Part shown: positions 3,901 through 60,586 of the stretch, piece by piece
Position numbering within the stretch: the stretch's first letter is position 1
How the letters are laid out: each line of letters starts with the position of its first letter
Source: Folioceros fuciformis
Lineage: Eukaryota
DNA length: 62,957 bases
Direction of reading: 5' to 3'
NCBI GenBank assembly: GCA_049999805.1
Contig: JBNGIO010006382.1
Coordinates: 508,214 to 571,170 of the forward strand
Program-made: the position numbers and the translations under genes
Notes under the pieces: model-generated
What the model saw: the letters and a program-made list of their open reading frames with translations, nothing else
Database searches by the model: none
Told to the model about the DNA's origin: nothing

Positions 3901-5585
3901 GACGAGCTGACTGGATGGAGTCACCATACCAAGCTGTTGATTTCCGGAGGTCTTATGCCCATGTTGTTGATGTTCATGTGCCTGAGGTGAGGCCAGATCC
4001 ACAAAGCTATTCGGAAGCCTTGAATGGACCGGATGGTCATCATTGGCGTATCTCCATCGATGATGAATATAATTCTTTGATTAAGAATCACACATGGGAG
4101 CTTGCTGATCTCCCGCCTGGCCGTAAGCCTATCTCCTGCAAATGGGTGTTTAAAACCAAGTTGAAGTCAGATGGTACTATAGCACGCTATAAGTCACGCT
4201 TAGTAGCAAGAGGTTTTTCACAGATACCTGGTATCGACTATGGTGACACTTTTTCACCAGTAGTGAAGCCACCCTCTATACGTATTCTTCTTGCTATGGC
4301 TGCCGAATTTGACCTTGAATTGCATCAGATGGATGTGTGTACAGCCTTTCTGCATGGTGAGCTTGAAGAGGTACTGTACATGCTCCAGCCTGAAGGGTTT
4401 GTGGACAAGAAGTTTCCAAAGAAGGTGTGTAAGTTGTTGAAAACTATCTACGGTCTTAAGCAAAGTCCTCGAGCGTGGTATAAACGAATTACAGCTTTTC
4501 TAAGGAAACATGGCTTTATTCAGTCTCCAGCAGACTCTAATGTATTTTACCTTGCTGTTGGGTCTTCCTTTGTCATACTTGCCCTTTATGTCGATGATGC
4601 CATCCTCCTCAGTGACCAGATGGTACACATGGATAGGGTTAAAGCCTTGTTGCGTACTGAATTCGAGATGACAGACCAAGGCCCTCTTCAATACTGCTTG
4701 GGTGTACAGATTCTGCGGGACAGGAGTACACATTCCATTGTACTTCATCAGACAAAGTATATTAAGGAAATATTGAAACGCTTTCATATGGATTTAGCCA
4801 AGCCTTTATCTACACCTTCTGCAGTGGGGGTAAAACTTACTGTAGAGCAGTCCCCTCAAGATGCAGATGAGGTGGAGTATATGTCTACAGTTCCGTATGC
4901 AGAAGCTGTAGGCAGTCTTATTTTTCTGGCGAACTGGACCCGGCCTGATATCAGCTATGCTGTGAGTTCCGTTTCTCAGTTCCTGAAAAACCCAGGGAGA
5001 GCACATTGGTCAGCTGTTAAGCGTATATACAGATTTCTAAAAGGCACTCTTAATTATGGTTTACACTATATTTCAAGTGGAAATAGAGATCTTACACTTA
5101 CAGCTTTCACAGATGCTGATTGGGCATCAGACGCTGACTCTCGTCGTAGCTTATCAGCTTATGTTTTCACCTTGGCTTCTGGTGCTGTGAACTGGTCTTG
5201 TAAGAAGCAGTCTTCCTTAGCCCTGTCATCAACAGAAGCCGAGTATAAGTCTCTCACGGATGCATGCAAGGAACTTGAGTGGGAAAGGCGTTTCCTTGAG
5301 GCAATTCGCTTACCACAGACTGATCCGACTTTGCTCTTCTGTGACAATATGTCAGCAATTGCCCTAGTCTCCAATCCCAGGTTTCATGCTCGTACAAAAC
5401 ATATAGAGCTTTACTATCATTATATCCGGGATGTGGCAGATAGAGGCATAGCCCGCGTACAGTACATCAACACAGACTCTAATACAGCTGATATATTAAC
5501 TAAGGGCTTGCCTCAGTTCAAACATTATCAGCATACGGCAGCTATGGGACTGAAAGAGTTCTCCCTACCTCTGCCTAAAGCCTAA
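991..5585 (+). pseudogene. Copia gag-pol polyprotein with two frameshifts (~1549-1555 and ~2540)
   Basis: Gag RFDG..F..WK..M, zinc knuckle CNWCGVAGHWERDC, protease WFVDSGA, LWHARLGH, integrase IHADISG/RTDNGGEF/NGVSERRN, RT YVDD, RNase H FTDADWA. Confidence 0.95.
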
Positions 5586-5755: not shown

Positions 5756-6372
5756 TCAAGTCGTGGGTGTGTTCTGCAGTTTACCGTATCCCATTTGCTC
5801 CAGCCTTCCAACGATTGTCGTGAGTTCTTCTATGGTCGGAGGGATCTCGAAGCCGCAGTTGTCAGGAGTCTTTGCAAGCAGGTCCCTCAGCTCCAGGACC
5901 CTGTCGCGCGCCACGTCCATTGCCTCTCTGGCTTCTTCACACTTTAGGGCAGTCTTCTGAAGATGGCGCAGAAGCTCGAGGTCGGCTCTTCGGAGGATGC
6001 TTGCTGCCTTTGCCATGTCTGCCGCGACTGCTGCTGGGTTGGAGAGCTACGCCAGAGCCCTTGTGGAACGTCGACGCGAGTTGTCTGTCTTCAAGCTTCC
6101 ACCAGTCTCTGTCGAGATGCACCCGTCGCGATCAGAAACAGAGTTGCTGAGAGGCCCATGACGATCGCGCTTAAGAGCTCCAGAATTGCAGCGGGCTCCA
6201 TGCTCTGTGCTTGCGAATGTGAACCGGCGTCACGAGGTCTCAGGAAGATGCAGTGAGCGTAATGGTGGCACGAGTGGTAACGGCGAAGTAACGTGGCTTT
6301 AAATGGTGCCCGTTTACGTTCCGTTGAAGAAGCGATACACTCGGTGTAACTCAGAGCTGGTTTGAGTTGCAT
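5756..6372 (-). other. Antisense ORF remnants between pol stop and PPT
   Basis: 86-aa helical ORF 6016-5756 whose frame extends upstream past a single TAG (6047-6049); overlapping ORF 6372-6091 has a hydrophobic stretch. Confidence 0.4.
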
Positions 6373-6572: not shown

Positions 6573-7337
6573 GGGTCAGGGCATGGAACATGTACAACAA
6601 CGTAGGAGTAGAGAAAGGAGGACTAAAATTTTAACACCTTGTTCCGAGAAGAAGATGAGAGACCATGGCCCCATATTTTGATGCCAAATAAAGGACAAGG
6701 GATAATTAATATATCAAATAATCATTTTCGAAGGTTGATATTCATAATATTTATATGATATACAGCATGATATAAAGTAGTTGCAAAACCTATCCCCTTG
6801 ACAAGAGGGTAGGAGGCAAAAGAGGTCCAATTAAAGTTTGGGTCAAATAATGTGATCCAAGATAAATGTATATGCGGACTTATTCCATGACCTAAACCCT
6901 AAACCCTAAGCCCTATTAAGCATCATAATTAAATGTGCAATCTGAATCTTAAATGGGAACCTTTTGAGTTGAAATGCATGATCTTAGTTTTGTTAAAGGT
7001 AACATAAAAGCTTTGCAAAAAGTAGAGAGACATTGATGTTGTTGTATTGAAGAAGGTAAAAGAAGCACATCTTTAGCATATAGAAGCATAGGAATGCTCT
7101 TGAGCAACAAACGAACTCCCCCCACCGGAAGCTTGTCACATCAATCCCGCAGTGGAGCTGTGGACCCGGAGCTGGGCTTTACACCTCTTAGGATCGAAAG
7201 CTGGTTGTTGTATTCCGAACCGCACGCCAATTCGTGCGTATAACTTCCGCACGCCGGAAAGATGAAGGGACAAGAGACGGACTGTTGGGGGGCCTGATAG
7301 GCAGGGTGTTCTGCGCCTGCGCCTGGTGGTGCTAGCG

Positions 7338-9593
7338 ATGGTTGCGTGGCACGTCGCAATTGAGCCGAGCAAGGCGCAGCAGGGTCGCATTCAGGGATGG
7401 GATTATTGCACCCGACAGCTTTTTGTTGATGAGCCGACCTGGAAGGCTCCCCCTCACTGGACCTCAAGGGATCAGGCATGGACAGGCAAGGAAGCCGGGA
7501 GGTGCAGCACCTCTGCACGAAGGGCAGGCTGGGTTTATCGGCAGCTGACTGACGTGGATGCGTTGGTGGGTCGTGACGTTTGTCCGCCCAGCAGCTTGAG
7601 AGCGGGGGATGATGGTGAAGCAGGAAGTGACAGTGGCAGGCCTGGAGGAAACGGAAGGCGGATAACGGCCGAAAGTGTGAGCAAGCTTTGTGAGCAAGGG
7701 CAGCTCCCGGAGGCTGTTACAGCCCTGGGAGTTTTGGGGTACTCGGGCTGTCGTGTCTCAAAAGCGCTTGTGTACGCTGTTCTGAAAGAGTGTGTGGTGA
7801 AGAAGGATTTGGCATTGGGTCGCCGTGTGCATGCCCTCGCTGTAACGAAGGGGTATGAGTCGGACACGTTCTTGTGCAACCACTTTCTACGGATGTACGC
7901 TTCACATGGCAGGCTGCAGGAAGCTATGGAAGTGTTTAGGATGGGTGCAGAGCCAGATGCTTTCATGTGGTCTTCTGTCATTTCTGCACACGTTAGGCAG
8001 GGGGAAGATGAGCAGGCCATAGAGCTGTATCACGAGATGCGTGGGTCCGGTGTGAAGGCGGATGGTCATGTGTTTGTGGCTGCCCTTCAGGCTTGTGCGA
8101 GGGGAAAGGACTTGGAATCTGGGCTCCAGGTGCATGCTGATATCTTGGCTAGCGGGGTGGAGCCTGATTTGTTCGTCTCTAGTGGCTTGGTGGACATGTA
8201 TGCCAAGTGCGGCAGCTTGGAAGACGCTCAGAGAGTGTTTGACGGGCTTCAGGAGAAGAATGTGGTGACATGGAATGCCATGATAGCAGGTTATTCCCAG
8301 CAGAGCATGGGGGAGGAAGCACTGGGTCTGTACAAGGAAATGTTGGATGAGGGCATGACTGCACCTGATTCTGTGACCTTTGTGTGCCTCCTGCAGGCTT
8401 GTGCGAGTGAGGGAACCTCGAGTTTGGAGAAGGGGAAGGAATTGCACAGGCAAATCATACGACGCGGGCTTCAAGCTGATGTGTTTGTCGCAAACAGCCT
8501 GGTCAACATGTATGCGAAGTGCGGCAGCGTGGAGGATGCCCAGGGTGTGTTTGACACACTTGAGAGAAAGAATGTGGTGACATGGAGCGCCATGATAGCA
8601 GGATATTCCCAGCAGGGCGTGGGACAGGGTGCCCTTGGTCTTTACAGGGCCATGCAAGAAGAAGGCTTGGTTGCACCGAACGCAGTTACATTTGTGTGCC
8701 TCCTCCAGGCATGTGCAAGCGTGGCAGCCTTGCATGTCGGAAGGGAGCTTCACATCCAGATCAAAGACCACGGCCTTCAAGATGATGTGCTTTTAGCTGG
8801 CAGTTTGATAAACATGTACGGAAAGTGTGGCAGCATGCTTGAAGCACAACAAGTGTTCGAGGCTCTGCCAGAACGAGACCTCGTCGTGTGGAATGCTCTG
8901 ATTGCAGGATACGCCCGTCAAGGAGACAGCCAGAAGGTCTTCGACTTGCTTCTCAAGATGGGAGAGGATGGTATCCAGCCAGATGGTGTCGTATTTCTCA
9001 GTGTCCTAACAGCATGCAGTCATACGGGGCTAGTGGACAAGGGGCAGGAGTACTTCGAGGCTATGAGCAGGCTGTACGGCATCACTCCCACTGCTGACCA
9101 CCACACCTGCATGGTGGATCTCCTGGGCCGGTCAGGGCAACTGGACGAAGCTCTAGCACTAATACACAGAATGCCTGGAGAGCCTAACACTTCCATCCTT
9201 CACACGCTCATGAGTGCCTGCCGAAAGTGGAATAACGTGGACGTAGGACGCCGTGCCTTCGACGAAGCAGTGAAGCTAGATGAGAGGAATGCCGCATCGT
9301 ATCTCTTGATGTCGAGCATATACACTGGTGCCCAGATGTGGCAGCAAGCTCAGGAGATGCACGCTATGAGAAAGAAAATCAAAGCACGGAAGCAACCAGG
9401 CCAGAGCTGGTGGACTGACACGGATGGGTTGGTGCATAGTTTCTTGGCTGGGAATAATATACCTGCTTCCCCAACTGTGCGACGTGGTCGAAATGTTGGG
9501 CAGGCCTTTGCTATTACACCCAAGCACCCATCCCTGCTTTTTGTACATACTTCATTGAAAGCTAAAGTGGACTTCATTGACAGACTTTATTGA
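7338..9593 (+). CDS. PLS-class PPR protein with E1/E2 and a WW-type PG box; DYW deaminase truncated (organellar RNA-editing factor)
   Basis: Single-exon ORF with ~14 P/L/S repeats (YAKCG, VVTWNAMIAGY, FLSVLTACSH, CMVDLLGRSG) and E motifs. KQPGQSWWTDTDGLVHSF at ~9390-9445; no HxE/CxxC follows. Confidence 0.93.
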   Translation: MVAWHVAIEPSKAQQGRIQGWDYCTRQLFVDEPTWKAPPHWTSRDQAWTGKEAGRCSTSARRAGWVYRQLTDVDALVGRDVCPPSSLRAGDDGEAGSDSGRPGGNGRRITAESVSKLCEQGQLPEAVTALGVLGYSGCRVSKALVYAVLKECVVKKDLALGRRVHALAVTKGYESDTFLCNHFLRMYASHGRLQEAMEVFRMGAEPDAFMWSSVISAHVRQGEDEQAIELYHEMRGSGVKADGHVFVAALQACARGKDLESGLQVHADILASGVEPDLFVSSGLVDMYAKCGSLEDAQRVFDGLQEKNVVTWNAMIAGYSQQSMGEEALGLYKEMLDEGMTAPDSVTFVCLLQACASEGTSSLEKGKELHRQIIRRGLQADVFVANSLVNMYAKCGSVEDAQGVFDTLERKNVVTWSAMIAGYSQQGVGQGALGLYRAMQEEGLVAPNAVTFVCLLQACASVAALHVGRELHIQIKDHGLQDDVLLAGSLINMYGKCGSMLEAQQVFEALPERDLVVWNALIAGYARQGDSQKVFDLLLKMGEDGIQPDGVVFLSVLTACSHTGLVDKGQEYFEAMSRLYGITPTADHHTCMVDLLGRSGQLDEALALIHRMPGEPNTSILHTLMSACRKWNNVDVGRRAFDEAVKLDERNAASYLLMSSIYTGAQMWQQAQEMHAMRKKIKARKQPGQSWWTDTDGLVHSFLAGNNIPASPTVRRGRNVGQAFAITPKHPSLLFVHTSLKAKVDFIDRLY

Positions 9594-11299: not shown

Positions 11300-13320
11300 G
11301 TGGTTAGCTTTGTTGGAGCAGTGTAGTTCCTGTGTTTGTCTGTGGTACATGTGTGTGTGTGAGTGGTATATGATCCTCCTTGGTACCGTCGTTGCATTTG
11401 GGGGCCTCCTCTCAGTCTCCATCCTCCCAAGTGTGACTGCAAGTACCCCTCAAGTGAGGCTCCACCTTAGCACAGAAGGTAGGCGGGGCGTATTGGCTAA
11501 CGGCTGCGGTCTCTCTATTCTTGTGCCTCCAATAGCAGTCAAACGGTGACATCAAGTCAATATGCCTATGAATGAGCAAGTGCAATTCCTGCGTTAGGAA
11601 TGATCCCCTTTCTCAATCTGATGCTACTGGTCTTCCATCGCGTCCACAAGGGAGTGTTGTACTTGCTGTCTGAAGCTTTCAACTGGTCTAGATGCCGTGA
11701 AAGGAGTTCGAAACATCAAGGGAGAGTAATAACCGAGAACTACGCTATGCAGGCGCAGCCCCTGTTAAAAACTCTGTACCAAAGGTATGGAGGTTTGTGT
11801 GCTACAGAACACTGAGATTCTGCGAACGTTTCTTGTGACACGTATCACACCCAAGCATCTGTCTTGTTGTCTGAAAGTGTTCCCTCCTAATGAGTGAAGC
11901 CACCTTGGCTGCTCATGAGCCTTAGCTCGCGTAACGTGGTTGGACGGTGCAGTGCGTGAGCTGGATATTCCGGGTCCGCCACATCGATTACCAGAAGTAC
12001 GGGGATCCCGTCCCTTCCTCATGAACTTGTGTGTGTCTATGGGACGTAACCATCTCCTGGCCGGAATATCTAAACTCCCTTGTCAGAGCTTCTCACAGGC
12101 GCATGCCCGCGCTCTTACAGTTGGTGAAACCAGAATCACGAAATCAGAGCAAAGTTTTTGTGGTAAATACAGACGTTCCTATCTTTTCCCTTTTGGCACT
12201 CGGCGTGGGAGGTATGGCCGAGGACTCCGAATCCCTTCATTTCTCTTGTCTCGCTCCTGTTGTGGTAGGGCGATGCGTTTCTCTCGGTCTGTCCCTTGCA
12301 ATATATTATTGTATTTAAGGCGACACTATGTTAACAAAGACAAAAGATCATAGAATGATGTCGGTAGTTGGCGTGTAGGCAAACCCAGCGCCTACAGACT
12401 GGTTCACAACCTCCTGCTCATGCGTGTACTATGTACTGCAGCATTTGCATGGGAGCATACTACACGCGCACACATCGTCACATTCACAGCCCTGTAGGCA
12501 GCAGGACCTCTTATCCCTGAATCAGTGCTCCGACAATGCAAGAGAGGAACAAGCGTGTAGCACAGTCTTGTCATGGAAGAGAGCTAAGTACATTCATGGT
12601 CATGCACCAAGCTTATATGATGCAGGCGGAGACCCTGCCAGACACACGTTCGACCAAAGTCAGATATTGTATGCTGCAGAATCAATGACAATTTAGGTGC
12701 TGCGTCTCTCCACAAGCCAGAGACACCCGTAAGCTCTTAGCTTCATGGACCGATATTGCTCCGTCTCATACTCATTTCTGGCAGGGGTGATCATCAAAGG
12801 GCACTGATAGACGCTTTGACGTCACAAATAAGGAAACATGGTGTACATGTTTGGTACATGTGTAAATGTCACCACCTGATGGCCTATCGTCGTGTCCGAA
12901 GCCCGGGAGATTTGAGAGGAGGCGCGTCATGGAGATGTGCTGCTCTGAGGACCGCATTATGCTCCTGATGGGATAAGTGGCCGCCGAAGTGGGCGCGCAG
13001 GGAGGCTGCACTTCGTTGGTTGCGGTTTCAATCATCATTCGTTGATGAGCTTCATCTCCGAGAAGTGTGATGGTATACCGTCAGAGTCACTTGACTGCGA
13101 AAATTAAGAAGCTTTTGAAGAATATGACAGTATCCTAGTGTTCGGCTGAAACGCACTCATTTTGAAGTTGTTGTAGGCAGGGTTCAATCAAGTTACAGAC
13201 GCTATAGCGTGTACAAACGGATTAGCAAATACCATACAACGGAAGTACGTGATGATTCCAAAGCTGGGCACCAGTGTGCAGCCACCAGCGGAGACACGAG
13301 GGATCAGAGAGGCAACTTCA
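11300..13320 (+). repeat. Diverged local duplication block, copy A (degenerate gene remnants plus Mpv17 5' fragments)
   Basis: 11300-12200 matches the reverse complement of 22440-23200 (HKGVLYLL, RxRHxDxQKxGDPVP, GIxKLPxQSFSxAH). 12400-13320 matches 21000-21950 directly and 25070-25430 inverted. Confidence 0.8.
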
Positions 13321-13457
13321 GTGAGCGCTCAGATGATATGGCAGATGGACGATGCTCGATAAGTGAGTCAATTCACAAGGACATGTAGAAACGTATTTAT
13401 TAATCGTGTGGCTGATCCCCAGCCTTTCAGGTGAGTATGTAGTAGAGTATATAGCAC

Positions 13458-15633
13458 CTGGTGCATCTTGTACAACAGTGTACCCGGTCAGGGACCTCCA
13501 ACTACTCCACCCAGTATCACGTTCAGACCCCCAGGATCGAGGCCTCCACCACATGTGAGCCACATTCCCCTCAAATGTGGACTTGGATGGAAACGTCCTC
13601 CCTTGAGCAAAAGCGTGTGCACACATATGCATACACAACGTTCAGCACAAGAGCATGCGCAGCGAGATCGAAAGGCGGTGCAGCATGCAATCAGCCATTG
13701 TCGACAACAATAGCCATAGCAGCGCCAAAGATGCCGCCATCAGTAGCACAAACTGCACTCCCTCTTGCACTCCCTCTTCACTGCTATAAACCTATGGGGT
13801 TTGTGCAACATATCTACATTAGAGTCTAGAGATTATACCCAAGGTATATAGAATAGAACCACAATCGAGGTAACGTTTACCCTTTATTGAGTTATAGTCA
13901 TGTTTGAAGGCTATATATGTACGCATGAACTATCAATCTAGTTGTATTGAGATAAGGCTTATCTTGGGGCTTATCTTGAGATTCATCGTTTTTCTAACAT
14001 GCTATTAGAGCCCATGTTCTAAATCCCAACTCCCTTGGCTCAGCAGACGTGTAGAGTACTTAGCATTGCTTGTGTAAAACTATATGTGCTTCCTTTGCAT
14101 TGTGTACTAGGCTATGCAGACTATGTGTTTGTAAGAGCTCGTGCAAGTTAGAGGAGCTTGGTGATAGTTATCGGTGCAAGGACATGATCTTGTTTGGCTG
14201 CGAATTAGTCCACACTGACGTGAGCGGGCCCATGAGGAACCAAACCCAGGGTGGGAACCGCTATGATCTGTGGACGATTTTACACGGAAGACATGGACTT
14301 ACCTTTTAAAGGAGAAATCTCAGATGTTCTCAACCTTGCTACATAGGGAGAAGGAGAGACACTCCTAAGGCCATTGTGGTTAAAGACGTAGTTAGAGTCT
14401 TACCCCCAGCAGCAGGTATAGAATACGACATTAAGGGAGGAGAGAGAAAAACTCCGAATGTTACTGAAGAAGTAGAAGAAGACTATCGAGTTACAGAACC
14501 GCAATTTGCGTTATGTAGAAGCTCATAGAATCTCTTAATGAATGTGTTCATGAAGAGATGTGCGTTTTGCAGATTTTGGAAAACCCCGCAGCTTGACGGA
14601 GGCAATCGCAAGCCCTAAAGCAAAAGAATGGAGAGAAGTTGTGGACAGTGAGTATAACTCCCTCATTGCCAACAAAACGTGGATTATTACTCCTTTTCCT
14701 CTTAGAAGGAAGTGCATAGGATTGAAGTGGACTTNNNNNNNNNNTACTCCTTTTCCTCTTAGAAGGAAGTGCATAGGATTGAAGTGGACTTTTACTCCTT
14801 TTCCTCTTACAAGGAAGTGCATAGGATTGAAGTGGACTTTCAAGATCAAACAGAAGGCCGACGGCAGCATAGAGCGCTACATGCTAGGGCTAACCGAGTA
14901 ACTCTTAAATAGTCCGTAGATGTGTTGATTGGGAGTGTTAGAAACCTATGAGGTTTGTGCAACATATCTACATTAGAGTCTAGAAATTATACCCCAAGGT
15001 ATATATAATAGAACCACAATCGAAGTAATGTTTACCCTTTATCGAGTGAGTTATAGTCAAACTTGAAGGCTATATATGTATACATGGACTATCAATTTAA
15101 TTATATTGAGCTGAGGCTATTATAGTCAAACTTGAAGGCTATATATGTACGAATCGATTATCAATCTAATTGTATTGAGCTCAGGCTTATCATGGGGCTT
15201 ATCTTGGAATTCATCATTTTTCTAACATTCACCATCCGCAAATCGACACTAACTCCCTCCCTGAGAAACGTTAGACAATACGCACCCTCCTCAACGGTAT
15301 TGACCGTATCGAAGGTCCTGTCGGCAACTCCAGCTGCACAGACGTGGAGATCATTGGAAGAAAAGTCAAACTACACAATAGGGAGAATCCTTTTTCTCTT
15401 CAAGTGAGGCAGAGACGTGGGAGTAGGCACAGCAGCGGAAGACGTAGGAGAGTGACCGAGTTTACGGCCCGGTCCAGAAATCCCATCGGCCGTTGAGAAA
15501 TCACAGATCGCCATGGCAGGCTGTGCGAAGCAGGGGAAGAGCAGCAGGGGAAGAGCAGCAGGGCAGCACAGAGCATCACCATCAAGGTGCGGAAGACCCT
15601 AGGCCTAGGAGCGGTTTCTCCCGATCCAGCCAT
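13458..15633 (-). pseudogene. Pseudogenised paralog of the secreted Cys-rich peptide gene at 23495-24221
   Basis: Exon1 15633-15457 (MAGSG..RPR.FR.LM..L.AALLLF.C..GRKL), exon2 15333-15286, exon3 remnant from 13684 (VVYAYVCTR, GSERDTGWSSWRS). Lesions: 14-bp duplication frameshift, lost acceptor and an LTR insertion. Confidence 0.88.
13782..15227 (+). mobile_element. Internally deleted (non-autonomous) copia element with TTCAC target-site duplication
   Basis: LTRs 13782-13999 and 14936-15227; degenerate PBS tgctattagagc; integrase remnant ELVHTDVSGPM; RT remnant EYNSLIANKTW..CIGLKWTFKIK; ttcac at 13777-13781 and 15228-15232. Confidence 0.93.
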
Positions 15634-16519
15634 CGCCACAAGCGACTCTAAAAGCGTCGGGTGCACGTAGGCAGATTGCGATGACATCTGGGCAGCTGGG
15701 GGCCCGCCCTCAGATTGTAAAAGTGCTGGGCCACTTTAAAATCGCTATCGAAGAATCGTAGACGTTAAACTAGCCAGAACCGAGAATGCGGGGGCCCGCA
15801 TGACGCCCGACCCCGTAATGATAGGATTCTTTATTATTATTTTATACAATACTGTACGTGTAGCCGCCGGTTAGCTCGCAAACGGAATGGAATGGGCTAC
15901 GTATCATACGCGAACGACACATTCCACTGTCCGGTCCAGCTTTTCACGCAGACATTGTCTGCCGTTTCTCCCATTCAAACCACGACCGAGGCCCAGACTG
16001 GGCGGCCAGTTCTGGACTTCCCGATGCTTGGAACCGTGCATCGCGGCGCAGTTGCGTTCGGACGGCGCTGTGACAGGCCAAACTGCGGCCCAGTTCAAGT
16101 GCCGGGTCTAAAGTTTAAAATATATATTTTTAATTATAAACGCTAGATATAAATGTTTTTTTAATTTAGGAACTACATAGTTGGCCACAAGGCCATTCGG
16201 TGTTTCCTCTTTTCTATCCCTTCAACTTTATTTGAGTTTATCTCATTATATATATATATATATATATATTACTACGGTTGGTACGATCTCCTCATTATGA
16301 TGTACCTCTTGGATTTGGTAGTGACTTATTGTCTAAATTTTTTATTATTCTAGTTTTTATTATTCACATTGAATGAAGTTCTCTAGTAGATATCATCTAG
16401 TAAGAGTAAGCGGGGGAGGCAATAGCAGAAGCTTCCTCAATAAAATAGATTATGGAGAAATATACCAATGCAAGCATGACATAGTAATAGTGTTAAGGTG
16501 ATAGATTCTCAATGACAAT

Positions 16520-20799: not shown

Positions 20800-21950
20800 C
20801 TTTGTTCAGCCTTTATAATGGTAACTATAAACGCTCTGTTCATTCGGTCGCTTACATTGTGAAAGGCGTTTTAAGTGTCCTGCAAGACTGTGCCTGGCCA
20901 AGTCTTGAATGCGGGTGAGAAGTCCGGGCGAGAGCTTTGGATTGGACGCAAAAGTTTGGGCTTGGACCGGGCCCAACTTTGCTCGGAGCCTGGCCTGTTG
21001 TCCATTGTGGGACATTTGTTTCTGAGGTTAGACGCGTGTCAGATGCACCATAATTGCAGAGCCTCCTACGCGTGGACATATCCTCACATCCACGGCGCTG
21101 TAGGCAGCAGGACCCATTCTCCCCACTAGGGTCCTAGTCTAGGGTTCAGACGATGCACTAGGAGAATAAGGATGTAGGATAGTCCTGTCGTAAGAGAACG
21201 TGAGCAAGAGAGCTAACTACACTCAGGTTCATGACCAAGCATGTCTCATCCAGGCGGAGCTCTTGCCAAATACTTTCCACGGTTTCCACCAAAGGTAGAT
21301 GTGCAACAGAATCAATGACAAAGGACTGACTCTCCACAAGAAAGGAAGAGGCACGTTACTTCTTGCTTGAAGGAGTCACTAAAGTTCTGGGTCTCACAAG
21401 CGCTTCTGGCAGAAGTGTGGCAGCTGTCACAGCGCACGTGGCGGTTTGTATGATGCAAACAAGGAGGCATAGTGTACATGTTTTATGCACATGTGTGTGC
21501 CACTACCCATTGCCCTATTATCATGTCCGAGACTTCGGAAACTGGATGGGACGAGTGTCATGCTGCCGATGGGCTAGAGCTGCCACTAGGTTTCGGCTGA
21601 CAGTACACTTGTAGAGGGATCCTGAAATGAACACGGAGGGAGGGCGCGGTTGGGGTAACAACCGTTATGTGAATGTTCATTGTATCCCTGAGATATGCGT
21701 TAGCACGCCATGATGATTACTTGACAGTACCAGGAGTCATGGAAAATCAAAGATCAAATTTGTGGAGCGCTGGTGTTTGGTTGGAACACACCCATCGTTG
21801 ATGTCATCACGTGCAGGATTCAATGGGACTCTGGCGTGTAGACACGGATTGACAGCCACTTTACAGCGGAGGTGAACAAGAATTCCAAGACACGGCAAGT
21901 TTGTGCAAGCATAGCACCAGGGACTCGAGCGGTAAGAGCTGCATCGTGAG
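20800..21950 (+). repeat. Duplication block carrying Mpv17 promoter and exon-1 fragments
   Basis: tcctcacatccacggcgctgtaggcagcagga (21081) vs tcctcacatccacagcgctatgggcagccgga (29417), 28/32 identical; also similar to 12400-13320. Confidence 0.8.
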
Positions 21951-22059: not shown

Positions 22060-23230
22060 TGGCTACATGATATGAGTAGAGTGTTGTAGGTGGGTCTTGT
22101 GCAGCAGTGCCGGGTACAATCGCTCAGCACGCACATCTACACCACCCAGTCTTACAACAAGACACGTAGGCCGTAGGCCGTGGGCTGTGGGCTGTGGGCT
22201 GTGGGCTGTAGGATGTGGGCTGTAGGCTGTAGCTGTAGGCTGGAGTCTGTGGATTGCCTCCACGACACCGGCATCAATTCATGATCCAAAGATGGTCTTG
22301 CTGAATAGAGTGACGCCTGGTGTACGAAAAGATATTGCAAGGGGCACAGCAACGCATCTCCCTACAACGACAATAGCGAGAGAAATAAAGCGAGTACTCA
22401 GCCATGCCGCGCACGCGCATTGCCAAAAGGAAAAAGATAGGAACATAGTTATCACAACTTTTTGTGTGATTGGGTGATTCTGACTTCGCCAACTGTATGA
22501 GCGCAGAGATGTGCTTCTGAGAAGCTCTGGAAAGGGAGTTTACATATTCCGGAGGTGGTTACATTTACTAGTTCATTAGGAAGCGGCACGGGATCCCCGA
22601 ACTTCTGGAAATCAAAGTGGCGGGCCCGGTATTCTCTACCTACAGTAACCGGGATTCTGTTGCTCTGCGTTTGGTAGAAAATGTTCAACAGGAGCTTCGC
22701 CTGCACACTGTAGCTTGGTCCCCGGAAAACCTCGGTTTTCAAATGCCTGCATTTTATTACTACTTGATATACATATCCAGCTCCTTTCTATGTACTTCAA
22801 AGGAGGGCATGTAGACGAGTTGAAAACTCCAGCAAGCAGGTACAGTACTCCCTTGTGGATGCTACTGTATTGAACACCAGGGGCATCCGAGTCAGAAAGG
22901 AGATAAATTTCAAAGCAGGAATTGCACTTCCTCAGTCGTCCGCACAGTGATTTGATGTCTCCTTCTGAGTACAATCATAGCACATGCATAGAACGACGGC
23001 AGGTGTTTGTTCCTACGCCCCCCATACCGTTGTGCCAAGGGTACTTGCAGCGTCACTTGGGACGCTGGAAGTTGACAGTAGGCCCACAAATTCAACATCA
23101 GTACCAATCGTGGATCGTATACGACCATCGGTACCAAAGTGAATGCATTGTATACCATATACACAAATTTGCCATGGAGAACCACATAGACACAGGCGCT
23201 ACACTGTTACAATAAAGCTCACCACCGACA
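22060..23230 (-). repeat. Inverted duplication block with a degenerate, possibly kelch/beta-propeller-like gene remnant
   Basis: Reverse-complement match to 11300-12430; remnants GKFVYMV..VVYDP and SIHKGVLYLLAG; (GCTGTGG/GCTGTAG)n microsatellite at ~22170-22240. Confidence 0.65.
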
Positions 23231-23299: not shown

Positions 23300-23338
23300 A
23301 AAGTGGCACAGCACTTTTACAATCTGAGGGCGGGCCCC
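23300..23338 (+). promoter_or_regulatory. Conserved upstream element of the Cys-rich peptide gene pair
   Basis: 38/39 nt identical to the reverse complement of 15699-15737, far above the identity of the flanking paralogous sequence. Confidence 0.7.
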
Positions 23339-23389
23339 ATGCTGTCCAGCCTGCGTGATCGCAATCGAGCTACGTGCCAGGGTATGACC

Positions 23390-23397
23390 TATATATA
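23390..23397 (+). promoter_or_regulatory. TATA box
   Basis: ccTATATATAgag ~100 bp upstream of ATG 23495. Confidence 0.7.
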
Positions 23398-23494
23398 GAG
23401 GCCAGGGTAACCTGACGATATATCACCTCGTCCCCGCAGCCGAGTTCGCGTCGTTCGAGCACTGCAATCGAAGCTGTCAGAGTCACTTCCGAAA

Positions 23495-24221
23495 ATGGCT
23501 GGATCAGGGACAACTGCTGCCTCCAGGCCCAGGGCCTTCCGCAGTTTGATGGGGCTGCTTTTGGCGGCCCTGCTTCTGTTTTCCTGCTTCACACAGCCTG
23601 CCGTGGCGACTGGCGGTATCTCAGCGAGCGTCCGAACTTTCGGACCAAGCCGTAAGCTCGGTCCGTCACTTGTGCCTTCCAGTGCTGTGCCTGCCGCCAT
23701 GTCTCTATGTCGCTTGAGAAACAAGAACATCTGCCATACTTTGTGATTGACTTCCATTTTCTTGATCTCCACGTCTGTTCAGCTTCAGTAGTGGACAAGG
23801 TCGTCGATGCCGGCGTTGATGGGGTCGACGGTGAGGGAGATGGTGCGTACCCTGTTTCACGTTGTTCAGGACGTCAGTGTCGATTTGCAAATAGTGAAGG
23901 AAGGACGTGTCTTGGGCTAGTGACGCGGTGGTTTGGATACTGGCGCCCGTGCCTGAGTGCTTCTGTTGCCGCTCTCGTTGACAATGTCTAACTGTAGGCT
24001 GCCATGAGTTCTATTCTTGCTGCAATTCCGTTGAAATTTGTGTCGTGTATGCATTCATGTGCAGTCGTTCTAAGTGCTGTGAAGGGTGCAGTCGACGGCT
24101 CCGGAGTGTGAGCTGGCGGATATGTTGGGGAGACCCTAATTCTGGGTCTCAGTGTGACACACTGTGGGGCAGATGTAGGTCTATCGAATGGACTCGGGAC
24201 TGCTACACAAGAGGCTCCTAG
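23495..24221 (+). CDS. Secreted cysteine-rich prepro-peptide, 149 aa; join(23495..23660,23783..23842,23998..24221)
   Basis: Signal peptide (LMGLLLAALLLFSCFTQPAVA), RKL motif, acidic exon 2 and a 74-aa exon 3 with 12 Cys. All introns are phase-1 GT-AG, with splice positions conserved in the paralog. TATA box upstream and AATAAA at 24272-24277. Confidence 0.85.
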
Positions 24222-24478
24222 ACTACACTTCTGAATAGTCACCTGAAACGCTGAGGACCAGCTACACAATCAATAAAGGCATTTATTACTGTCCTGCTCA
24301 GCACCTGACTCATTTGTCGCGCGTCCCTCATCTGGCAGATCAATTGAGCACTAGCTGACATTGAACCTGTCCTCTCATCGCTTTATCTCTGTTGCTCGCC
24401 ACGCACACATTTGCCTTCGCCTTGGAATTACTGCTTACCTCCGTTGCGCAGTGAACGTAATTCTACGCATACGCGCCA

Positions 24479-24816
24479 CAACAGCCTATGCATCTTGACT
24501 ACAATCACTCCCAAGAGTAGCACTGTGTCCTGGTCGAACACTAGTTCACATATCTGTGACTATCACCTGCATCTTCATTCGTCATCCCAGGGGAATAGAA
24601 ACTGCAACCGACATCATATATCTAGCAACTTCCGCAACAGCCTAGGCATCTTGACTACAATCACTTCCCAGGGAAGCACTGTGCGTCCTAGTCGAACACT
24701 AGTTCACAGATCTGTGACTATCACCTACATCTGCATTCGTCATCTCATCTTGTTGAAATTGGCGATTCCAGGGGAATAGAAACGACAACCAACATCATAT
24801 ATCAAGCAACTTCCGC
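24479..24816. repeat. Tandem duplication, ~2 x 160-180 bp
   Basis: caacagccta(t/g)gcatcttgactacaatcact... starts at ~24479 and ~24635. Confidence 0.85.
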
Positions 24817-24969
24817 ATACTTTCCAGAGCCCCTATCCAATCTCAAATGTAGCCCTAGCCTTTCTCCGAATCACGCGCCCAACAAAATTTCTGAGGTTCC
24901 GAACTCGACGAGAGGGCACTAACTACATATGTACAAAACAAGGACACTAGCCTCCTTACTCGTATCATA

Positions 24970-25440
24970 CAAGTGTCCCTAACTGCCCTTCGACACTCAT
25001 TCCCGCCAAGAGTAAGTATGACACTGAGCAATATCGTCCTCGAAGCTAAGGTCTTGCATACCTGTCTTGCTTGTGAAGATGAGCATGTTCATTGCCTTTC
25101 ATTCTGCAGCATATCTAACTTTGGTGGAACATGTTTGGCAGGAGCTCCGCCTGCAACATTTAAGCTCGGTGCAAGAATATGGCTGCGGTTAGCTCTCCTG
25201 CACCAGAAGACGGTCCTACAAACTTGTTCCTCTCTTGCATAGTCGGAACACGGCTCCGGACAACAGTTCCTGCTGCGCACAGCGCTGTGGATGAGACGAT
25301 GTTTGTGCGTGCAGTACGCATCGCAAATGGTGCAGTACATTGTACGGCAGCCGCAGGAGCAGAGCAGAGCAGGATCAGAGGTTCTTCAGCACTGTGTAGG
25401 CTGTTGGTGGCCTCCACGCCACCGGCATCATGATTTGTGA
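24970..25440 (-). repeat. Inverted duplication block with an Mpv17 exon-1-like fragment
   Basis: Minus-strand RTNIVSSTALCAAGTVV vs Mpv17 RTQVLTSTALWAAGDVI; DYAREEQVC vs DNAREEQAC at 12530. Confidence 0.75.
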
Positions 25441-25539
25441 TCTTTTGTGTTCGTGAATACAGTACAAAAAAACGAATGGATGGCCGTACAACGACAGCAG
25501 CCAAAGAAATGAAGGCACCCCAAAGTACTATGTACTAAG

Positions 25540-27150
25540 CCATGCCGCTTAGCCGTATAAATCAGGTGGCCAGGTCCAGGCCCCACTGACACAGTCCTTG
25601 TGCCCGAGTGTATATGGTGCATGTATGTGGCATCATACATGCACCATATACAATATAGGCTTGACTGGTTACCGGTTGTGTCTGCCAGCGGGTTGTAGGA
25701 ATTGGGTTTAGGTATTGAAATCTCATTTCAAATCTTGATTTGCTTCCATCGCGGTGCGCCAAATGGGTGCTCTTTAAATGGACAAGGGTGATCCTAGCTG
25801 ACCTCGTACCACTAACCACCAGATAATGGCCTGTCATGGATTTTGACTTGCCTAATGAAAGGTTTTTCCACATCTTGGCTTTAATAGTTTATTTTTTTCT
25901 CTAGTCATCATTAATCCTTGCACTAGTCACCACTAATCCTTGCATGTTATATACCATTTTGTTTGTCTCAACAAGGTAAACAGAATGATGTATTTTTTTT
26001 GCATTTTGGAGCACATTTGATCAAGATGCTACAATGCAAGGTTTTCTTCACATCTTGACTTTGGATATTTGTTTCTTTCTTCAATTTTCACTAATCCTTG
26101 CATTCTACACACCATTCTGTTTGTCTTGGTAAGGCAAACAAAATGGTATGTACCATGCAAGGATTAGTGAATGTGGAACAAGGGTGCAAGAACATTTAGG
26201 ATTGTGTGCTTGAGAATGCAAAATACTTTGTTGGCTGTGAAGTGACTCGTAGCCCAAATGCAAGATATGGGTGGACAGCCTCAATGTAGGCCATTGCAAC
26301 CTTTTATACCAGTTGAAGGACCAAGCAATGCAGCTAGGTTGAGGCCTTTCTTTTCCCCTCCCAAGGAGAAAACGAAGAAAGTCACTTGGTGGCAACAAGA
26401 AGGTGGCAACAAGAATGCATAGAGGACAGCGGTAGATAATTACATGCCTCGTTTTCCACGACAATGGCAAGGTTGCACTCATTGGTTTGTCTTCGTAGAG
26501 GAGTACCTTGGCTTCCATGATGTTTATGCTGCTTTGTGCATTTAGTTTCCATTCACTATAGTGTCGTATTGCCTCCATGACCTTCTTACCCGCAGGCTTC
26601 ATATCGATGGAGCTCAGGCTCCGGCGGCCTTCAAATCCATGGGCCTTAGACTCCTGCAGCCTTTAAATCCATGGGGCTAGGCTCCTACAATTTCAAATCC
26701 ATGGGGGTTAGGCTCCTGCAATTTCAAATCCATGGCAAACCTTCTCTCACGAACGCAGACACACACACCTACCTTTCTCTACCCCTGGAACCAAGTCCCT
26801 CTTTCTTCGTCATCCACGAGTAGAACCAAGTCCCTCTTTCTTCGTCATCCGCGAGTAGAACCAAGTCCCGCTTCTTCGTCTTCGTACTAGTCTAATAGTT
26901 TGCGCTGTAGACCAAGGACGGTAGTTCGCTCGTGATGTGCATTGCCAGCCCGTTTTTCGCGGCAATAACCCTCGGCTTGCCCGTGCCGCTCTGTTTCACC
27001 GGTTACCGGTGCCCTGCAAAACTTTACGTAGATGCTCACCGTATCCTTATGCACAAGCCACGGGATGTAATACATCAAGCATGGCAGTGCTCCACGAGTG
27101 GATCGGTCGGGCCTAGATCTGGCCACCTTATTTTTACAGCTAGCCGCCAT
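25540..27150. mobile_element. Putative TIR DNA-transposon remnant (MULE-like) with internal tandem repeats
   Basis: Imperfect ~50-bp inverted repeats at 25541-25590 and 27100-27152; ~30-bp x4 (26600-26735) and 35-bp x~3 (26788-26885) arrays; interrupts an otherwise continuous duplication block; no TSD found. Confidence 0.45.
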
Positions 27151-27179: not shown

Positions 27180-27390
27180 GAAGAAGACTGTTTTGTGTGG
27201 TTGTGTGATTCTGGCATCACCAAGTGTATCAGTGCCGGGATGTGCTTGCACTGTACAAAGCTCTTAAAAGGAAGTTGGTATCGGTACAGTACCCGTAATC
27301 CAACCTGGACATGGTCACATCCAATAGTTTATTAGCAAGCGGCGGGATCCCGGACTGTTTGAAAATCAAAGTGGCGGGCCCGGGATGCCC
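27180..27390 (-). repeat. Third copy of the duplication block
   Basis: Direct repeat of 22450-22635 (gtgattctg..caa.tgtat..., aaatcaaagtggcgggcccgg). Confidence 0.75.
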
Positions 27391-29340: not shown

Positions 29341-30230
29341 ATGTCAACTTTTTCTCTGAGAAGTGCATGGGCGCGCTACCAAAATCAGCTGCAATCGCAT
29401 CCTGTACGAACACAGGTCCTCACATCCACAGCGCTATGGGCAGCCGGAGATGTTATAGCTCAAACCGTCTCCGCCAGGGTCTCTCGATCGCGGATTCCGG
29501 AAACTTCTGATTCCTATAGGGTAAGGAAACCTGATTAAATGCCAATGTGCAGATCTAAGTTGCGGGTTGCAGATTCAAACTGTGACTGCTGAAAAATAAC
29601 CCGCCCATATTCAGGGAAAGCATGAGGCAAGGGAGAGCGGGATCAACTGGCAGAGAGTGTTGACAACCAGCGGATTCGGAACTTGTTTTGTAGGCCCTGC
29701 CGGACATTTATGGTGACTCTTTCATCTCAGCATTAGTTGATCTGTAGGTGTTGAAGGTCATGCTTCTAACCATGGCAGCCAGGGTAAACTTACGGCTAGA
29801 CACTTTCAGGTACGAAGGATTGGAGTATCTCGTGAAGGACAAGTTGAGACTTCGGCCCAATTCCGTGTCCTTCATTGCCACAAAGCTGGCAGCAGATGCT
29901 CTCATCTTTGGACCCATTCATTTGCTAGCCTTCTTCACCTACATCGGAGTTACAGCAGGAAAATCTTGGGATGCAGTGAAGGGGGACTTGAAGAAAGAAT
30001 TCATACCCGCATTCCTGACGGAGGGAATGGTTTGGCCAGTTGTGCAGGTGATTAACTTCAAGTATGTCCCTGTCAGGCATCAGCTTCTGTTTGTGAACGT
30101 TTTCTGCCTATTGGACAGTGCTTTCCTATCCTGGTTCAAGTACCAAGACGATGCTCCCTGGAAGAGGTACCTGCTATCCTTGGTCACGGGTGCCGACGGA
30201 GGTGCTGAGGTAAAAAAGAGGGGCCAATAG
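29341..30230 (+). CDS. Mpv17/PMP22 family membrane protein; join(29341..29520,29615..29712,29810..30230), 232 aa
   Basis: AWARYQNQLQSHPVRTQVLTSTALWAAGDVIAQ, INWQRV, FVGPAGHLWYEGL, WPVVQVINFKYVPVRHQLLFVN; GT-AG introns in frame. Confidence 0.94.
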
Positions 30231-32962: not shown

Positions 32963-40605
<7,643 letters not shown>

Positions 40606-42955
40606 TGCACTACGTCCGCAACCCTAATACTATCCTACACCGCCAAATCCGAGGCGAGGACGATGATCTACCGCGCTGGAGCTGAGGCAAGTGACAATAG
40701 TAACACAGCCTCGGAACTCCAAGCATGGAGGGTAGACATCTAACCAAATCTAGCTTTCACGCGGCACAAATAGGCAAAAAGGGAAAGGCGAGGCGAGGCC
40801 TGGGCCGGGCCCTCTGGAGCGGACAGGAAAGCGGGGCACTAGAGCGCCTANNNNNNNNNNNNNNNNNNNNNNNNNNNNNNNNNNNNNNNNNNNNNNNNNN
40901 NNNNNNNNNNNNNNNNNNNNNNNNNNNNNNNNNNNNNNNNNNNNNNNNNNNNNNNNNNNNNNNNNNNNNNNNNNNNNNNNNNNNNNNNNNNNNNNNNNNN
41001 NNNNNNNNNNNNNNNNNNNNNNNNNNNNNNNNNNNNNNNNNNNNNNNNNNNNNNNNNNNNNNNNNNNNNNNNNNNNNNNNNNNNNNNNNNNNNNNNNNNN
41101 NNNNNNNNNNNNNNNNNNNNNNNNNNNNNNNNNNNNNNNNNNNNNNNNNNNNNNNNNNNNNNNNNNNNNNNNNNNNNNNNNNNNNNNNNNNNNNNNNNNN
41201 NNNNNNNNNNNNNNNNNNNNNNNNNNNNNNNNNNNNNNNNNNNNNNNNNNCAGCCAGCACCTCGCCCTCGTGTCCCTCACTCTTTTGCAATCGCATCCCA
41301 TCGCATCGTGAAGACGCCAGCCACTCTTTACTGCACTCTTCTAAACTCTACACCACTCTTTAACTTCTATCCATAATATATATCAGAGACACCATCCATC
41401 CAAGCAGCTAATTCTTGTGTCCTTTGCCTTTTCCCTTCTTCGTCAGCTTTTTATTGTTCTTCTTCTTACAACCAACGATTATACCCTAAAGTATGCTAAT
41501 CAGCTCCATACTTACTACACTCACTCTTACACATAAGACCCATTTGAACACCAACAACTCTTTCCACTTACACACTATGCATTCTCAATCTTCATCCAAG
41601 CTTACCAATCATAAAGTTCATCACCCCTAGATCTATTCACCCACTTGCTTCCAACACCCATTTATACATCAACAACCCTATCCACATAGTACACATGTGA
41701 AGACTTTATCAATTCTATCCTATTAGTACACATATAGAGACTTCATCTCCCATAAGGAAAGAAGAGAAAACCCCACGAAAGCAACCACGCTTATGAGATC
41801 TAGCCTCAAGCCCACATAAATGTACTAAACTAAAACCCTTCCTGCTTTAGCAAAAGCTTAGAGAAGATCTTGCCAATTCTTACATGAAACCCAAGATCTA
41901 GATTAGGTAACTAAACCTTTCAATTTAGGTATGATTCCACCATCCATTTGGATTCTCTGTCACTTCCATCTTATTGTTGCCAAATTGAAGTGATTCACAG
42001 CTAGCTTTCTTACACCACCAAATTCTTCACTCCATAGAACATGAAGACCAAAAGAGTATGTCTCGCTTCGATGTCCTTTTGCTTTTCCTATAGAATTGTA
42101 ATAAGATGCATAGAGCCACCCCACAAAGCTTGAAACACACATTGCACTAATCTAATTTGATACAACCCTCTGTTAGACATGGAGTATGCAAAGATTGCTC
42201 TTTTAAGAAGACTCATCAACAAACATGTCCATAGGTTTGTTGTACTCGGACATATGAGATGTGGAAAAGCGTATACAGGAACGGATGTACGTATTGAGGG
42301 AGCTTCCTCGACGACGGGATCTGATGGAACGGCGGAAGGCCCACCTGCACACGGTCGGCGTATGTACCGTGGAAAAATCGGGGAAGCTACTTTGAACGTG
42401 CATTCGGACAGGCGGGTTGCCGCGTGCCAATAGGAGGAGCTGGTAACGAGGGCCCCTGATTTTGTACGCCCTTTTGATGTCCACAGTACGCGCCTCTTTA
42501 CGCGGCACAGGCCTCACCTGATGAGATACACAAAATGCCAATATATATGTGTAGGGGCGCTGTAGGATCGTCGCAGTCGCAGTCACAGTCGCCGGTGGAG
42601 GATCGCGGCCCTGGCCTTGGACGTGTCCCTCTGTTGTGCGGGCTGGTCTCAGCTCAAGGCGTGGGATGCGTCTCCAGGCTTAGAGCAGTGTCGGAATTGC
42701 AGGGCCGTTCGTTCCCCGCTACCTCCTCCTCGCATCCGATCTCCTGACGGATGGTGCCGCAGCGCGCTCTCTCGATGCTCGCTCTCTAGCCATCTCTGGC
42801 GGCTCGAAGAAGGTGGATTAGGAGGGGGAGCTCCGTGGTTTGGGAGCCGGAGTTGAGTGAGCGAGCGCCTCTTGTATCAAGCCAGGCACGAGATTGCCCC
42901 TGCCACTGCCACTGCAGTTCCCGAGTCTAAGGCACACTCAGGTTGTTGCAAGAGG

Positions 42956-44155
42956 ATGGAGTTTTTCGAGAAGGCCAAGTCGGTGCGGCTGAGGAATGGT
43001 CATGGCAAGTTTCTGCGCGCCGGGAAAGATCAGCTGTCGGTGGTTCAGGATAGGGAAGGCACGGGGGAGGATAGCGTGTGGGAAGTAGAGGTGTTGAAGA
43101 AGGGAGGGAAGCTTGTCCGGTTCAAGAGCTGCTATAACTGTTACTTGAGAGCCATGAGTGCCGCATTCATGATAGGAGTGACCGGAAAGAAGGTGCAGCA
43201 GGGAAGGCCGTATAAGCTGGATCGCTCCGTGGAGTGGGAGCCGGTGAAGGAGGGGGACATCTATGTGAAGATCAAATCGTATGTCGGAACTTTCCTTAGG
43301 AGTAACCATGCAGTTCCTCCGTGGAGGAACTCCGTCACGCACGATGTGCCGATCACGCTGCGGGAGCTGGTGCTGTGGGAAGTGCAGATTGTTGAAAACG
43401 TGCCTCTTGTGAATCCCAGTTTGGAGGTAAGGGGATGCCGGACTCCTGTAGCTACCTACCGCCTGTTTCTGCCGAGGTTGCCCTAGTTTGAACGTGTGGG
43501 AGCGTGGTTATCGTCGTTTTGCAGGTATTGTACAGCAAAGTCCCTTCTCCTCGAGCAGTCCGTCTGGTGTACTACACCCTCTGTGATGATAGTGGGAAAC
43601 CGATAGATCATGGTGACGACGTGTGGCCTCAACTCAATTTCAAAGGAAACTCTGTGGGGGAATTGGCGCTTAAGGTGAAGCAAGAGATCGAATCCAGGGA
43701 TGATGTTATCTTGTGTTCCAAGGGTTCGGCTGGATCTCTGCGTCCGCTGCGCCTGGCATTGCCGCCGCAGAATGCTCCCATGCATGTGTTTGTGGTGAAG
43801 GCTTCTTCTCCTGGTGAGTTTGCCCCCCTGACGGTGTCTGCCTTTTTAAAAGACAGAAGCTGTTGATACCGTCAGAGTGCTCAAGCTCACGAGGATGCTT
43901 TTTTTTTTTTTTTACAATGCAGCTGGCCAGAAGCTACTCGCGCTTGAGCACGACACTGAAGAGGATGAGGAAGCTGTCAATGGTGAAGCTGAGGCCAAAG
44001 ACGAGGACCCTGACTACTATTCCAACGAAGATGGAGCCGAGTCTGTCCTCTCCGATAGTCTGGAATCCAGACACGAAGGTGACAGCAGCAGCAGACACAG
44101 CTCCGCATCCAGTGGACCTCTGGCTGTGGGCACTGGCGACATTTCCGGCCGTTAA
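42956..44155 (+). CDS. DUF569 (actin-crosslinking-like beta-trefoil) protein; join(42956..43426,43525..43813,43923..44155), 330 aa
   Basis: MEFFEKAKSVRLR..HGKFLRA, PPWRNSVTHD, LWEV, C-terminal RLVYY..FKGNSV..L..LRLALPP; acidic tail. Confidence 0.9.

Positions 44156-57581: not shown

Positions 57582-60586
<3,005 letters not shown>

Follow-up and report, generated by a model that had tools for sequence, protein, structure and literature searches.

Plants carry very many lineage-specific genes for Cys-rich peptides (CRPs), sets of which keep the signal conserved while the mature peptide diverges, and gene finders and ORF tracks routinely miss small multi-exon genes of this kind. Parts of two published accounts describe plant CRPs as numerous and under-predicted (PMC5557327, PMC7168108). 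In the sections that deal with the snakin/GASA family, its members are presented as small basic proteins in which a signal peptide and a variable region precede a C-terminal 12-Cys domain (PMC7711543, PMC4695807), and the GASA motif is given as CX3CX2RCX8(9)CX3CX2CCX2CXCVPXGX2GNX3CPCYX10(14)KCP in the relevant passage of one of them (PMC7711543). Passages of the other describe a signal, a Cys-rich mature domain, and an acidic pro-domain as typical of plant CRP antimicrobial families and place the acidic domain of thionins and of a minor defensin class at the C terminus (PMC4695807).

Here we analyze a locus in a 62,957-nt stretch of land-plant nuclear DNA (the window), which holds a three-exon reading frame for a predicted Cys-rich prepro-peptide and, on the opposite strand, a decayed second copy of it. 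We assign a probability of about 0.55 to the reading that the locus is a real, lineage-restricted land-plant nuclear gene for a small secreted Cys-rich prepro-peptide that belongs to no described family.

Layout and setting of the candidate gene

Joining the exons listed in Table 1 gives a coding sequence of 450 nt, comprising 149 codons and a TAG stop, with both introns bounded by GT...AG and every junction in phase 1. This reproduces exactly the 149-residue model put forward in an earlier note on this DNA, and the anatomy described there, with a signal-like first exon, an acidic second one, and a last exon with 12 Cys, is present in the sequence. The TATA box and AATAAA claimed in the same note were located, starting at 23390 and 24272, respectively. 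TATAWAW occurs only once in the 295 nt upstream, and no ATG intervenes between the TATA box and position 23495. Exon 1 codes for a 38-residue signal-peptide-like segment followed by a 17-residue linker. The segment has a basic n-region and an uncharged hydrophobic core of 15 residues as well as the residues A-V-A, with small residues at -1 and -3, and signal-peptide cleavage is predicted after A-V-A.

The GT-AG borders that the earlier note gave for the first two exons exist, but they are not unique. Sixteen GT-AG pairs preserve the open frame across intron 1, and an alternative end of exon 1 at 23651 has a donor (GCC/GTAAGC) that is nearer to the consensus than the weak one at 23660 (TCG/GTCCGT) and would remove the R-K-L at the end of the linker. 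For exon 2, the alternative donor at 23830 that had been suggested along with 23842 also preserves the frame.

Table 1. Coordinates of the candidate gene, its paralogue, and other features of the window, with nucleotide identity between the two copies where calculated
Feature	Position	Strand	Identity to paralogue	Description
Candidate gene				
Upstream box	23301-23340	+	93% (37/40)	~155-195 nt before ATG
TATA box (TATAWAW)	23390-23396	+		105 nt 5' of ATG
Exon 1	23495-23660	+	74%	ATG start in AAAATGGC context
Intron 1	23661-23782	+	62% (interior); 95% (last 20 nt)	122 nt, GT...CAG; borders uncertain
Exon 2	23783-23842	+	58%	Acidic middle piece, 20 codons, net charge ~-5
Intron 2	23843-23997	+		155 nt, GT...TAG
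Exon 3	23998-24221	+	57%	74-residue domain, 12 Cys, then TAG
3'UTR (stop to AATAAA)			77%	
Poly(A) signal AATAAA	24272-24277	+		51 nt 3' of stop
Paralogue				
Upstream box and exon 1	15457-15790	-		ATG at 15633
Upstream box	15697-15736	-		93% identical to 23301-23340; adjacent non-coding sequence is at 62-77%
Exon 3 remnant and 3'UTR	13237-13740	-		
Other features				
Copia-type LTR retrotransposon	991-5585	+		gag, Pol beta-barrel, integrase, and RVT_2 domains
PPR-E gene	7266-9593	+		Intronless, 775 codons, PPR protein with E motif
Mpv17/PMP22 gene	~29.7 kb			Pfam match at 29748-30230
INO80 DBINO piece	38431-39111	-		
DUF569	42857-43486			
Beta-amylase exon	59214-59825	-		

The upstream box contains a 6-bp inverted repeat (AAAGTG...CACTTT) and a GGGCCC core. 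The window holds exactly two copies of a 28-nt core of the box, a result seen in 0 of 100 shuffles. We regard the box as a putative cis-regulatory element, perhaps a site for a transcription factor.

The exon 3 peptide has a predicted mass of ~8.5 kDa, a pI of 8.3, and a net charge of +3, with 9 Arg and 4 Trp among its 74 residues; the previous description of the domain as cationic and Arg/Trp-rich is thus overstated. Its Cys spacing, recomputed as 5, 0, 5, 6, 4, 0, 2, 11, 9, 6, and 8 residues, agrees with the one reported before, and the reading frame stops 5 residues past the last Cys. The gamma-core is defined by the loose pattern GXC-X3-9-C, which occurs once in the peptide, as GXC-X8-C. 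We regard this gamma-core-like string as weak evidence.

The PPR gene on one side and the Mpv17/PMP22 gene on the other bound the ~20 kb of repeat-rich DNA in which the candidate gene lies, and dispersed repeat pieces flank it on both sides. The domains of the copia-type element are spread over three overlapping ORFs, which implies at least one frameshift between them. When 17 ORFs neighbouring the candidate gene, including an antisense ORF at 23389-23778 and an ORF at 23656-23991, were compared with Pfam, the sole match was Mpv17/PMP22, and Rfam gave no match inside the candidate gene. At 24476-24817, 250 nt downstream of the gene, a unit of ~160 nt is present in two tandem copies that are 79% identical. 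A near-perfect hairpin at 26065-26193 scored 33.5 bits with MIR1027 against a gathering threshold of 150 and matched MIR7504 on both strands, also far under the gathering threshold. It probably represents a MITE-like inverted repeat rather than a known miRNA.

A dead inverted paralogue and the pattern of divergence

A tblastn search with exon 1 was run within the window and found a decayed paralogue (E = 5e-10 and 2e-5, in two frames). This second copy extends from ~15790 to 13240 on the opposite strand, 8 kb from the candidate gene. The earlier note had inferred a lineage-specific family, which is not borne out in the window, where one intact and one dead copy are seen. The paralogue retains both candidate first donors, the acceptor region of intron 1, AATAAA in its 3'UTR, and a signal segment in which 27 of 37 residues are the same. 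Its exon 2 counterpart of 48 nt is open, has an in-frame indel of 12 nt relative to the candidate, and preserves the GTGCGTA donor. The paralogue lacks the 87-nt segment that carries the 5'UTR and TATA box, its exon 1 is thrown out of frame by a tandem duplication of 14 nt, and in exon 3 the acceptor AG is gone, five gap events have occurred, and 5 of the 12 Cys are left at aligned triplets. The paralogue is dead.

Intron 2 of the paralogue contains an AT-rich repeat insertion of ~1.4 kb (~13800-15230 in the minus-strand view, with an N gap at 14735-14744), which is probably a non-autonomous transposon. Direct repeats are found within it, with a unit of ~45 nt around the N gap and one of ~60 nt at ~15060-15190. 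An 83-residue ORF of the paralogue with 12 Cys (13488-13739, minus strand) was considered as a conserved protein and rejected, as it lies partly in another frame than the candidate exon.

The two copies have diverged unevenly (Table 1). The splice junctions, the upstream box, and the 3'UTR exceed the interiors of introns (62%) in conservation, and the dead copy, too, conserves the upstream box. Neither exon 2 nor exon 3 is more conserved than introns. Two of the three indels that distinguish the copies in exons 1 and 2 are multiples of three (3 and 12 nt).

Codon-periodic divergence was assessed by Nei-Gojobori counts on aligned triplets with a one-sided Fisher test and four MAFFT settings. 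In the predicted frame, dN/dS was 0.38 for exon 1 (P = 0.006), compared to 1.01 and 1.21 in the other frames, and 0.41 to 0.44 for exon 3 (P = 0.002 to 0.007 across the four alignment settings), compared to 0.73 to 1.29 in the other frames. Among control frames, P was below 0.05 in 1 of 36 from the duplicated flanks (P = 0.0034; 200-column chunks, both strands) and in 1 of 6 from intron 1 and the 3' region (P = 0.003). Divergence from the dead paralogue is therefore codon-periodic in both of the predicted frames and in 2 of 42 control frames, and this is the best evidence that, for much of the period after the duplication, the predicted frames of both exons were translated. We read it as a trace of past selection on the protein. 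The non-synonymous divergence of exon 3 (pN of 0.33 to 0.38) is close to the intron level, which indicates either that constraint on the mature part is weak or that the dead copy has long been drifting. With a dN/dS below 1, exon 3 gives no indication of positive selection.

The control hit in intron 1 (23662-23780) falls in the frame that is continuous with exon 2 in ORF 23656-23991 and has a dN/dS of 0.25. It could be due to chance among 42 frames, or part of the intron could be coding in some isoform. In the latter case the gene would be real with a different middle, in which part of intron 1 is read in the frame of ORF 23656-23991, for example from an acceptor at 23682/23683, with 3 to 5 additional Cys and an altered pro-piece. 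An acceptor (ttccag/TGC at 23683) and donors at 23603 and 23630 that keep the frame open are available for such a model. However, the matching donor and acceptor dinucleotides are absent from the paralogue, the introns would be merely 53 to 80 nt long, the acceptor region at 23782/23783 is the most conserved stretch of intron 1, and one such hit in 42 control frames is about what multiple testing leads one to expect. We consider a different middle quite improbable and retain the model in Table 1.

The flanks of the two copies are also duplicated, at 75 to 78% identity, with 22251-23125 and 24924-25463 corresponding to 12385-11363 and 12864-12325 on the minus strand. Their order is circularly permuted (gene-B-A versus A-gene-B), which points to either an old tandem array or repeats that were inserted independently, and pieces of them recur at 27191-27386, 21080-21321, and 29402-29454. 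The flanks were considered as a neutral yardstick for the exons and rejected because the recurrent and reordered pieces may be younger repeats. A chunk of piece B at ~25310-25463 (plus strand) has a low dN/dS of 0.27 (P = 0.0034).

The periodic substitution signal could predate the inactivation of a gene, and the locus might be a relic, in which an ancestral secreted-peptide gene was duplicated and the candidate copy is open but silent, drifting, or short-lived without a fixed function. The clear decay of the paralogue, the divergence of exons 2 and 3 to the intron level, the position of the locus in ~20 kb of repeat-rich intergenic DNA, and Pfam and protein-collection searches that returned no relatives (below) would all fit such a history. 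Nevertheless, the candidate copy keeps every signal and still has its TATA box, ATG, and AATAAA, all four splice dinucleotides, and an open frame of 149 codons, whereas its sister meanwhile lost TATA, frame, and acceptor through a promoter deletion, a frameshift, an acceptor loss, and five gap events in exon 3. The conservation of the upstream box and 3'UTR beyond the intron level argues in the same direction. We judge a relic to be unlikely, although it carries appreciable weight, and favor the reading of a real gene.

Searches for relatives and chance expectation

Homology and structure searches used single exons as queries. The earlier note had held that the Cys spacing does not fit defensins, thionins, nsLTPs, hevein-like peptides, RALF/EPF, or snakin/GASA, and our searches gave no match to a described family. 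Pfam-A hmmscan with exons 1 and 3, the latter a check that had been called for, returned 0 families at E ≤ 10, phmmer against the PDB returned 0 matches at E ≤ 10, and the GASA motif was not matched (below). A comparison of exon 3 with 1.84 billion protein representatives gave no credible relative. Three matches (E of 1.1e-4 to 9.5e-4) to repeat proteins of 604 to 1536 residues share only repeated short stretches with exon 3 and were rejected as spurious. For exon 1, 0 of 868 longer candidate proteins matched at E ≤ 1. No usable match was obtained from the ESM Atlas, and two metagenome scans gave 63 pattern matches with exon 3, of which 0 were confirmed, and 0 matches with the 28-nt promoter core. 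A search of the literature, in which a spacing is hardly text-searchable and whose scope did not extend to supplements such as Table S1 of PMC8462819, found no account of this Cys framework.

How much these results say depends on how well the lineage is represented. The PPR ORF of the window has a top identity of 54% in the protein collection, and its best named matches are from lycophytes at 45 to 46%. The beta-amylase exon is 85% identical to one assembly contig, followed by gymnosperms at 65 to 66%. These identities indicate that the lineage is barely sampled in the collections, so that finding no relatives argues only weakly for orphan status.

The ESM recognition value was 1410, compared to the 2300 reached by 91 of 100 known-family proteins, and is silent on whether the gene is real. 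The AlphaFold check suggested earlier was run with AlphaFold2 on exon 3 alone, as a single sequence without alignment, and gave an uninformative model with a pLDDT of 37.3 and a pTM of 0.19.

That neither the language model nor this single-sequence prediction recognized the 12-Cys domain would also be compatible with a chance construct, in which a signal-looking ATG-ORF happens to lie near a TG-rich Cys ORF, the two are joined by hand-picked GT-AG pairs, and there was never a gene. Frame-keeping models are indeed easy to find. Of the 11 signal-like ATGs that the window contains, 5 allow splicing to a tail with at least 10 Cys when GT-AG pairs are chosen freely, so the mere existence of a spliced ORF is cheap evidence, and the 16 alternatives for intron 1 point the same way. 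Exon 3 is TG-rich (0.128, versus 0.075 for the window), and the window contains two unrelated Cys-rich ORFs, at 5948-6253 (plus strand, 12 Cys) and 25089-25385 (minus strand, 11 Cys), neither with a signal-like start or a Pfam match, which shows that Cys-rich ORFs arise by chance in TG-rich plant DNA. GC content by codon position was uninformative.

Several observations set the candidate apart from this background. The exon 3 ORF has the top Cys count among the 419 stop-to-stop ORFs of at least 60 residues in the window, and its TGY triplets number 12 in frame compared to 3 and 3 out of frame. By a simple home-made heuristic for signal peptides, 11 of 572 ATG-ORFs qualify, and two of these are the candidate gene and its paralogue. 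The combination of an ORF with at least 11 Cys and a signal-like ATG-ORF no more than 700 nt upstream of it arose in 7 of 200 composition-matched shuffles (block-wise in 500-bp blocks, first-order Markov), and this count does not yet require the TATA box, poly(A) signal, or start context. At window-wide rates, P is 0.062 for TATAWAW and 0.042 for AATAAA, each per 120-nt stretch. Rough multiplication of these figures places pure chance well below 1 in 1000. A chance construct also has difficulty with the third-position-biased divergence in exactly the predicted frame of both exons and with a paralogue that shares the start, the signal segment, the junction sequences, and the poly(A) signal. We consider it highly improbable and continue with the reading of a real gene.

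Proposed function and comparison with known peptide families

For a real gene, we infer transcription, splicing, secretion, processing, disulfide formation, and activity along the following lines. Transcription would start ~30 nt past the TATA box at 23390, and two short introns would be removed, with the acceptor at 23782/23783 and the last exon as the firm parts of the model, 23651 or 23660 as the first donor, and 23830 or 23842 as the second. The N-terminal 38 residues would direct co-translational import into the ER and be cut off after A-V-A. In the ER, the 12 Cys would form six disulfides. The acidic middle piece would offset the mildly basic domain and be either removed or retained, and the resulting peptide of ~8.5 kDa would act outside the cell.

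Among possible roles, that of a defense-type (antimicrobial or anti-pathogen) apoplastic peptide would be the single most likely, at odds well short of even, and a role as a receptor ligand, although unlikely, would be nearly as likely as that. The "defence or symbiosis-control" role named in the earlier note is pure inference. Tentatively, and with somewhat less than even confidence, the locus may be viewed as the intact founder of an undescribed secreted six-disulfide family, with a 12-Cys framework unlike that of snakin/GASA, restricted to a land-plant lineage that is nearly absent from protein databases. Such a family would evolve in the manner of toxins and host-defense peptides. Its promoter box, signal exon, and UTR would be conserved, its mature exon would change rapidly, and its members would be born and die through local duplication.

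If expressed, the gene would add a new six-disulfide scaffold from a little-sequenced lineage to the plant secreted-peptide repertoire and could be put through antimicrobial or signalling assays at little cost. The pair of a living and a dead copy is suited to the study of the birth and death of peptide genes. As one more unverified lineage-specific CRP gene, the locus is of moderate interest.

The candidate resembles a generic plant secreted Cys-rich precursor in its size (149 codons, where such precursors have fewer than ~200 residues), in the even number of Cys in its C-terminal domain (12 in the last 74 residues, where such precursors have at least 4 to 6), and in its N-terminal signal peptide, as predicted by the heuristic. 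The closest architecture, going by the portions of the snakin/GASA accounts cited at the outset, is that of snakin/GASA, which likewise has a signal, a variable middle, and a C-terminal 12-Cys domain of ~60 to 75 residues. Both are small basic proteins, as the same portions describe for snakin/GASA, and a CC-x2-C element occurs in both. However, the candidate is without any conserved GASA residue. Regular-expression searches of the exon 3 ORF with the full GASA motif and with its Cys-only spacing matched in neither case, and with the Pfam GASA profile also unmatched, membership in snakin/GASA was rejected.

Thionin, some defensin, hevein-like, and knottin precursors, as presented in the sections cited above, share with the candidate the three-part layout with an acidic pro-domain. 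These families have 6 to 10 Cys, whereas the candidate has 12, and the acidic part, which those sections place at the C terminus in thionins and minor defensins, is encoded in the candidate by exon 2, between the signal and the Cys domain. No Pfam-A match at E ≤ 10 was obtained to the profiles of defensins and defensin-like peptides, thionins, hevein, nsLTPs, Bowman-Birk inhibitors, granulins, hydrophobins, or other Cys-rich domains. The first eight Cys of the candidate follow the order C..CC..C..C..CC..C, which is also the Cys order of hydrophobins, but the spacings of the candidate are far shorter.

Lineage-specific CRP sets such as the defensin-like/NCR peptides offer a further comparison. 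Those sets are large, whereas two copies of the candidate are seen in the window, one of them dead. In common with them, the candidate gene is small, has been duplicated locally, and carries a short intron behind its signal exon, and its signal exon (74%) is more conserved than its mature-peptide exon (57%).
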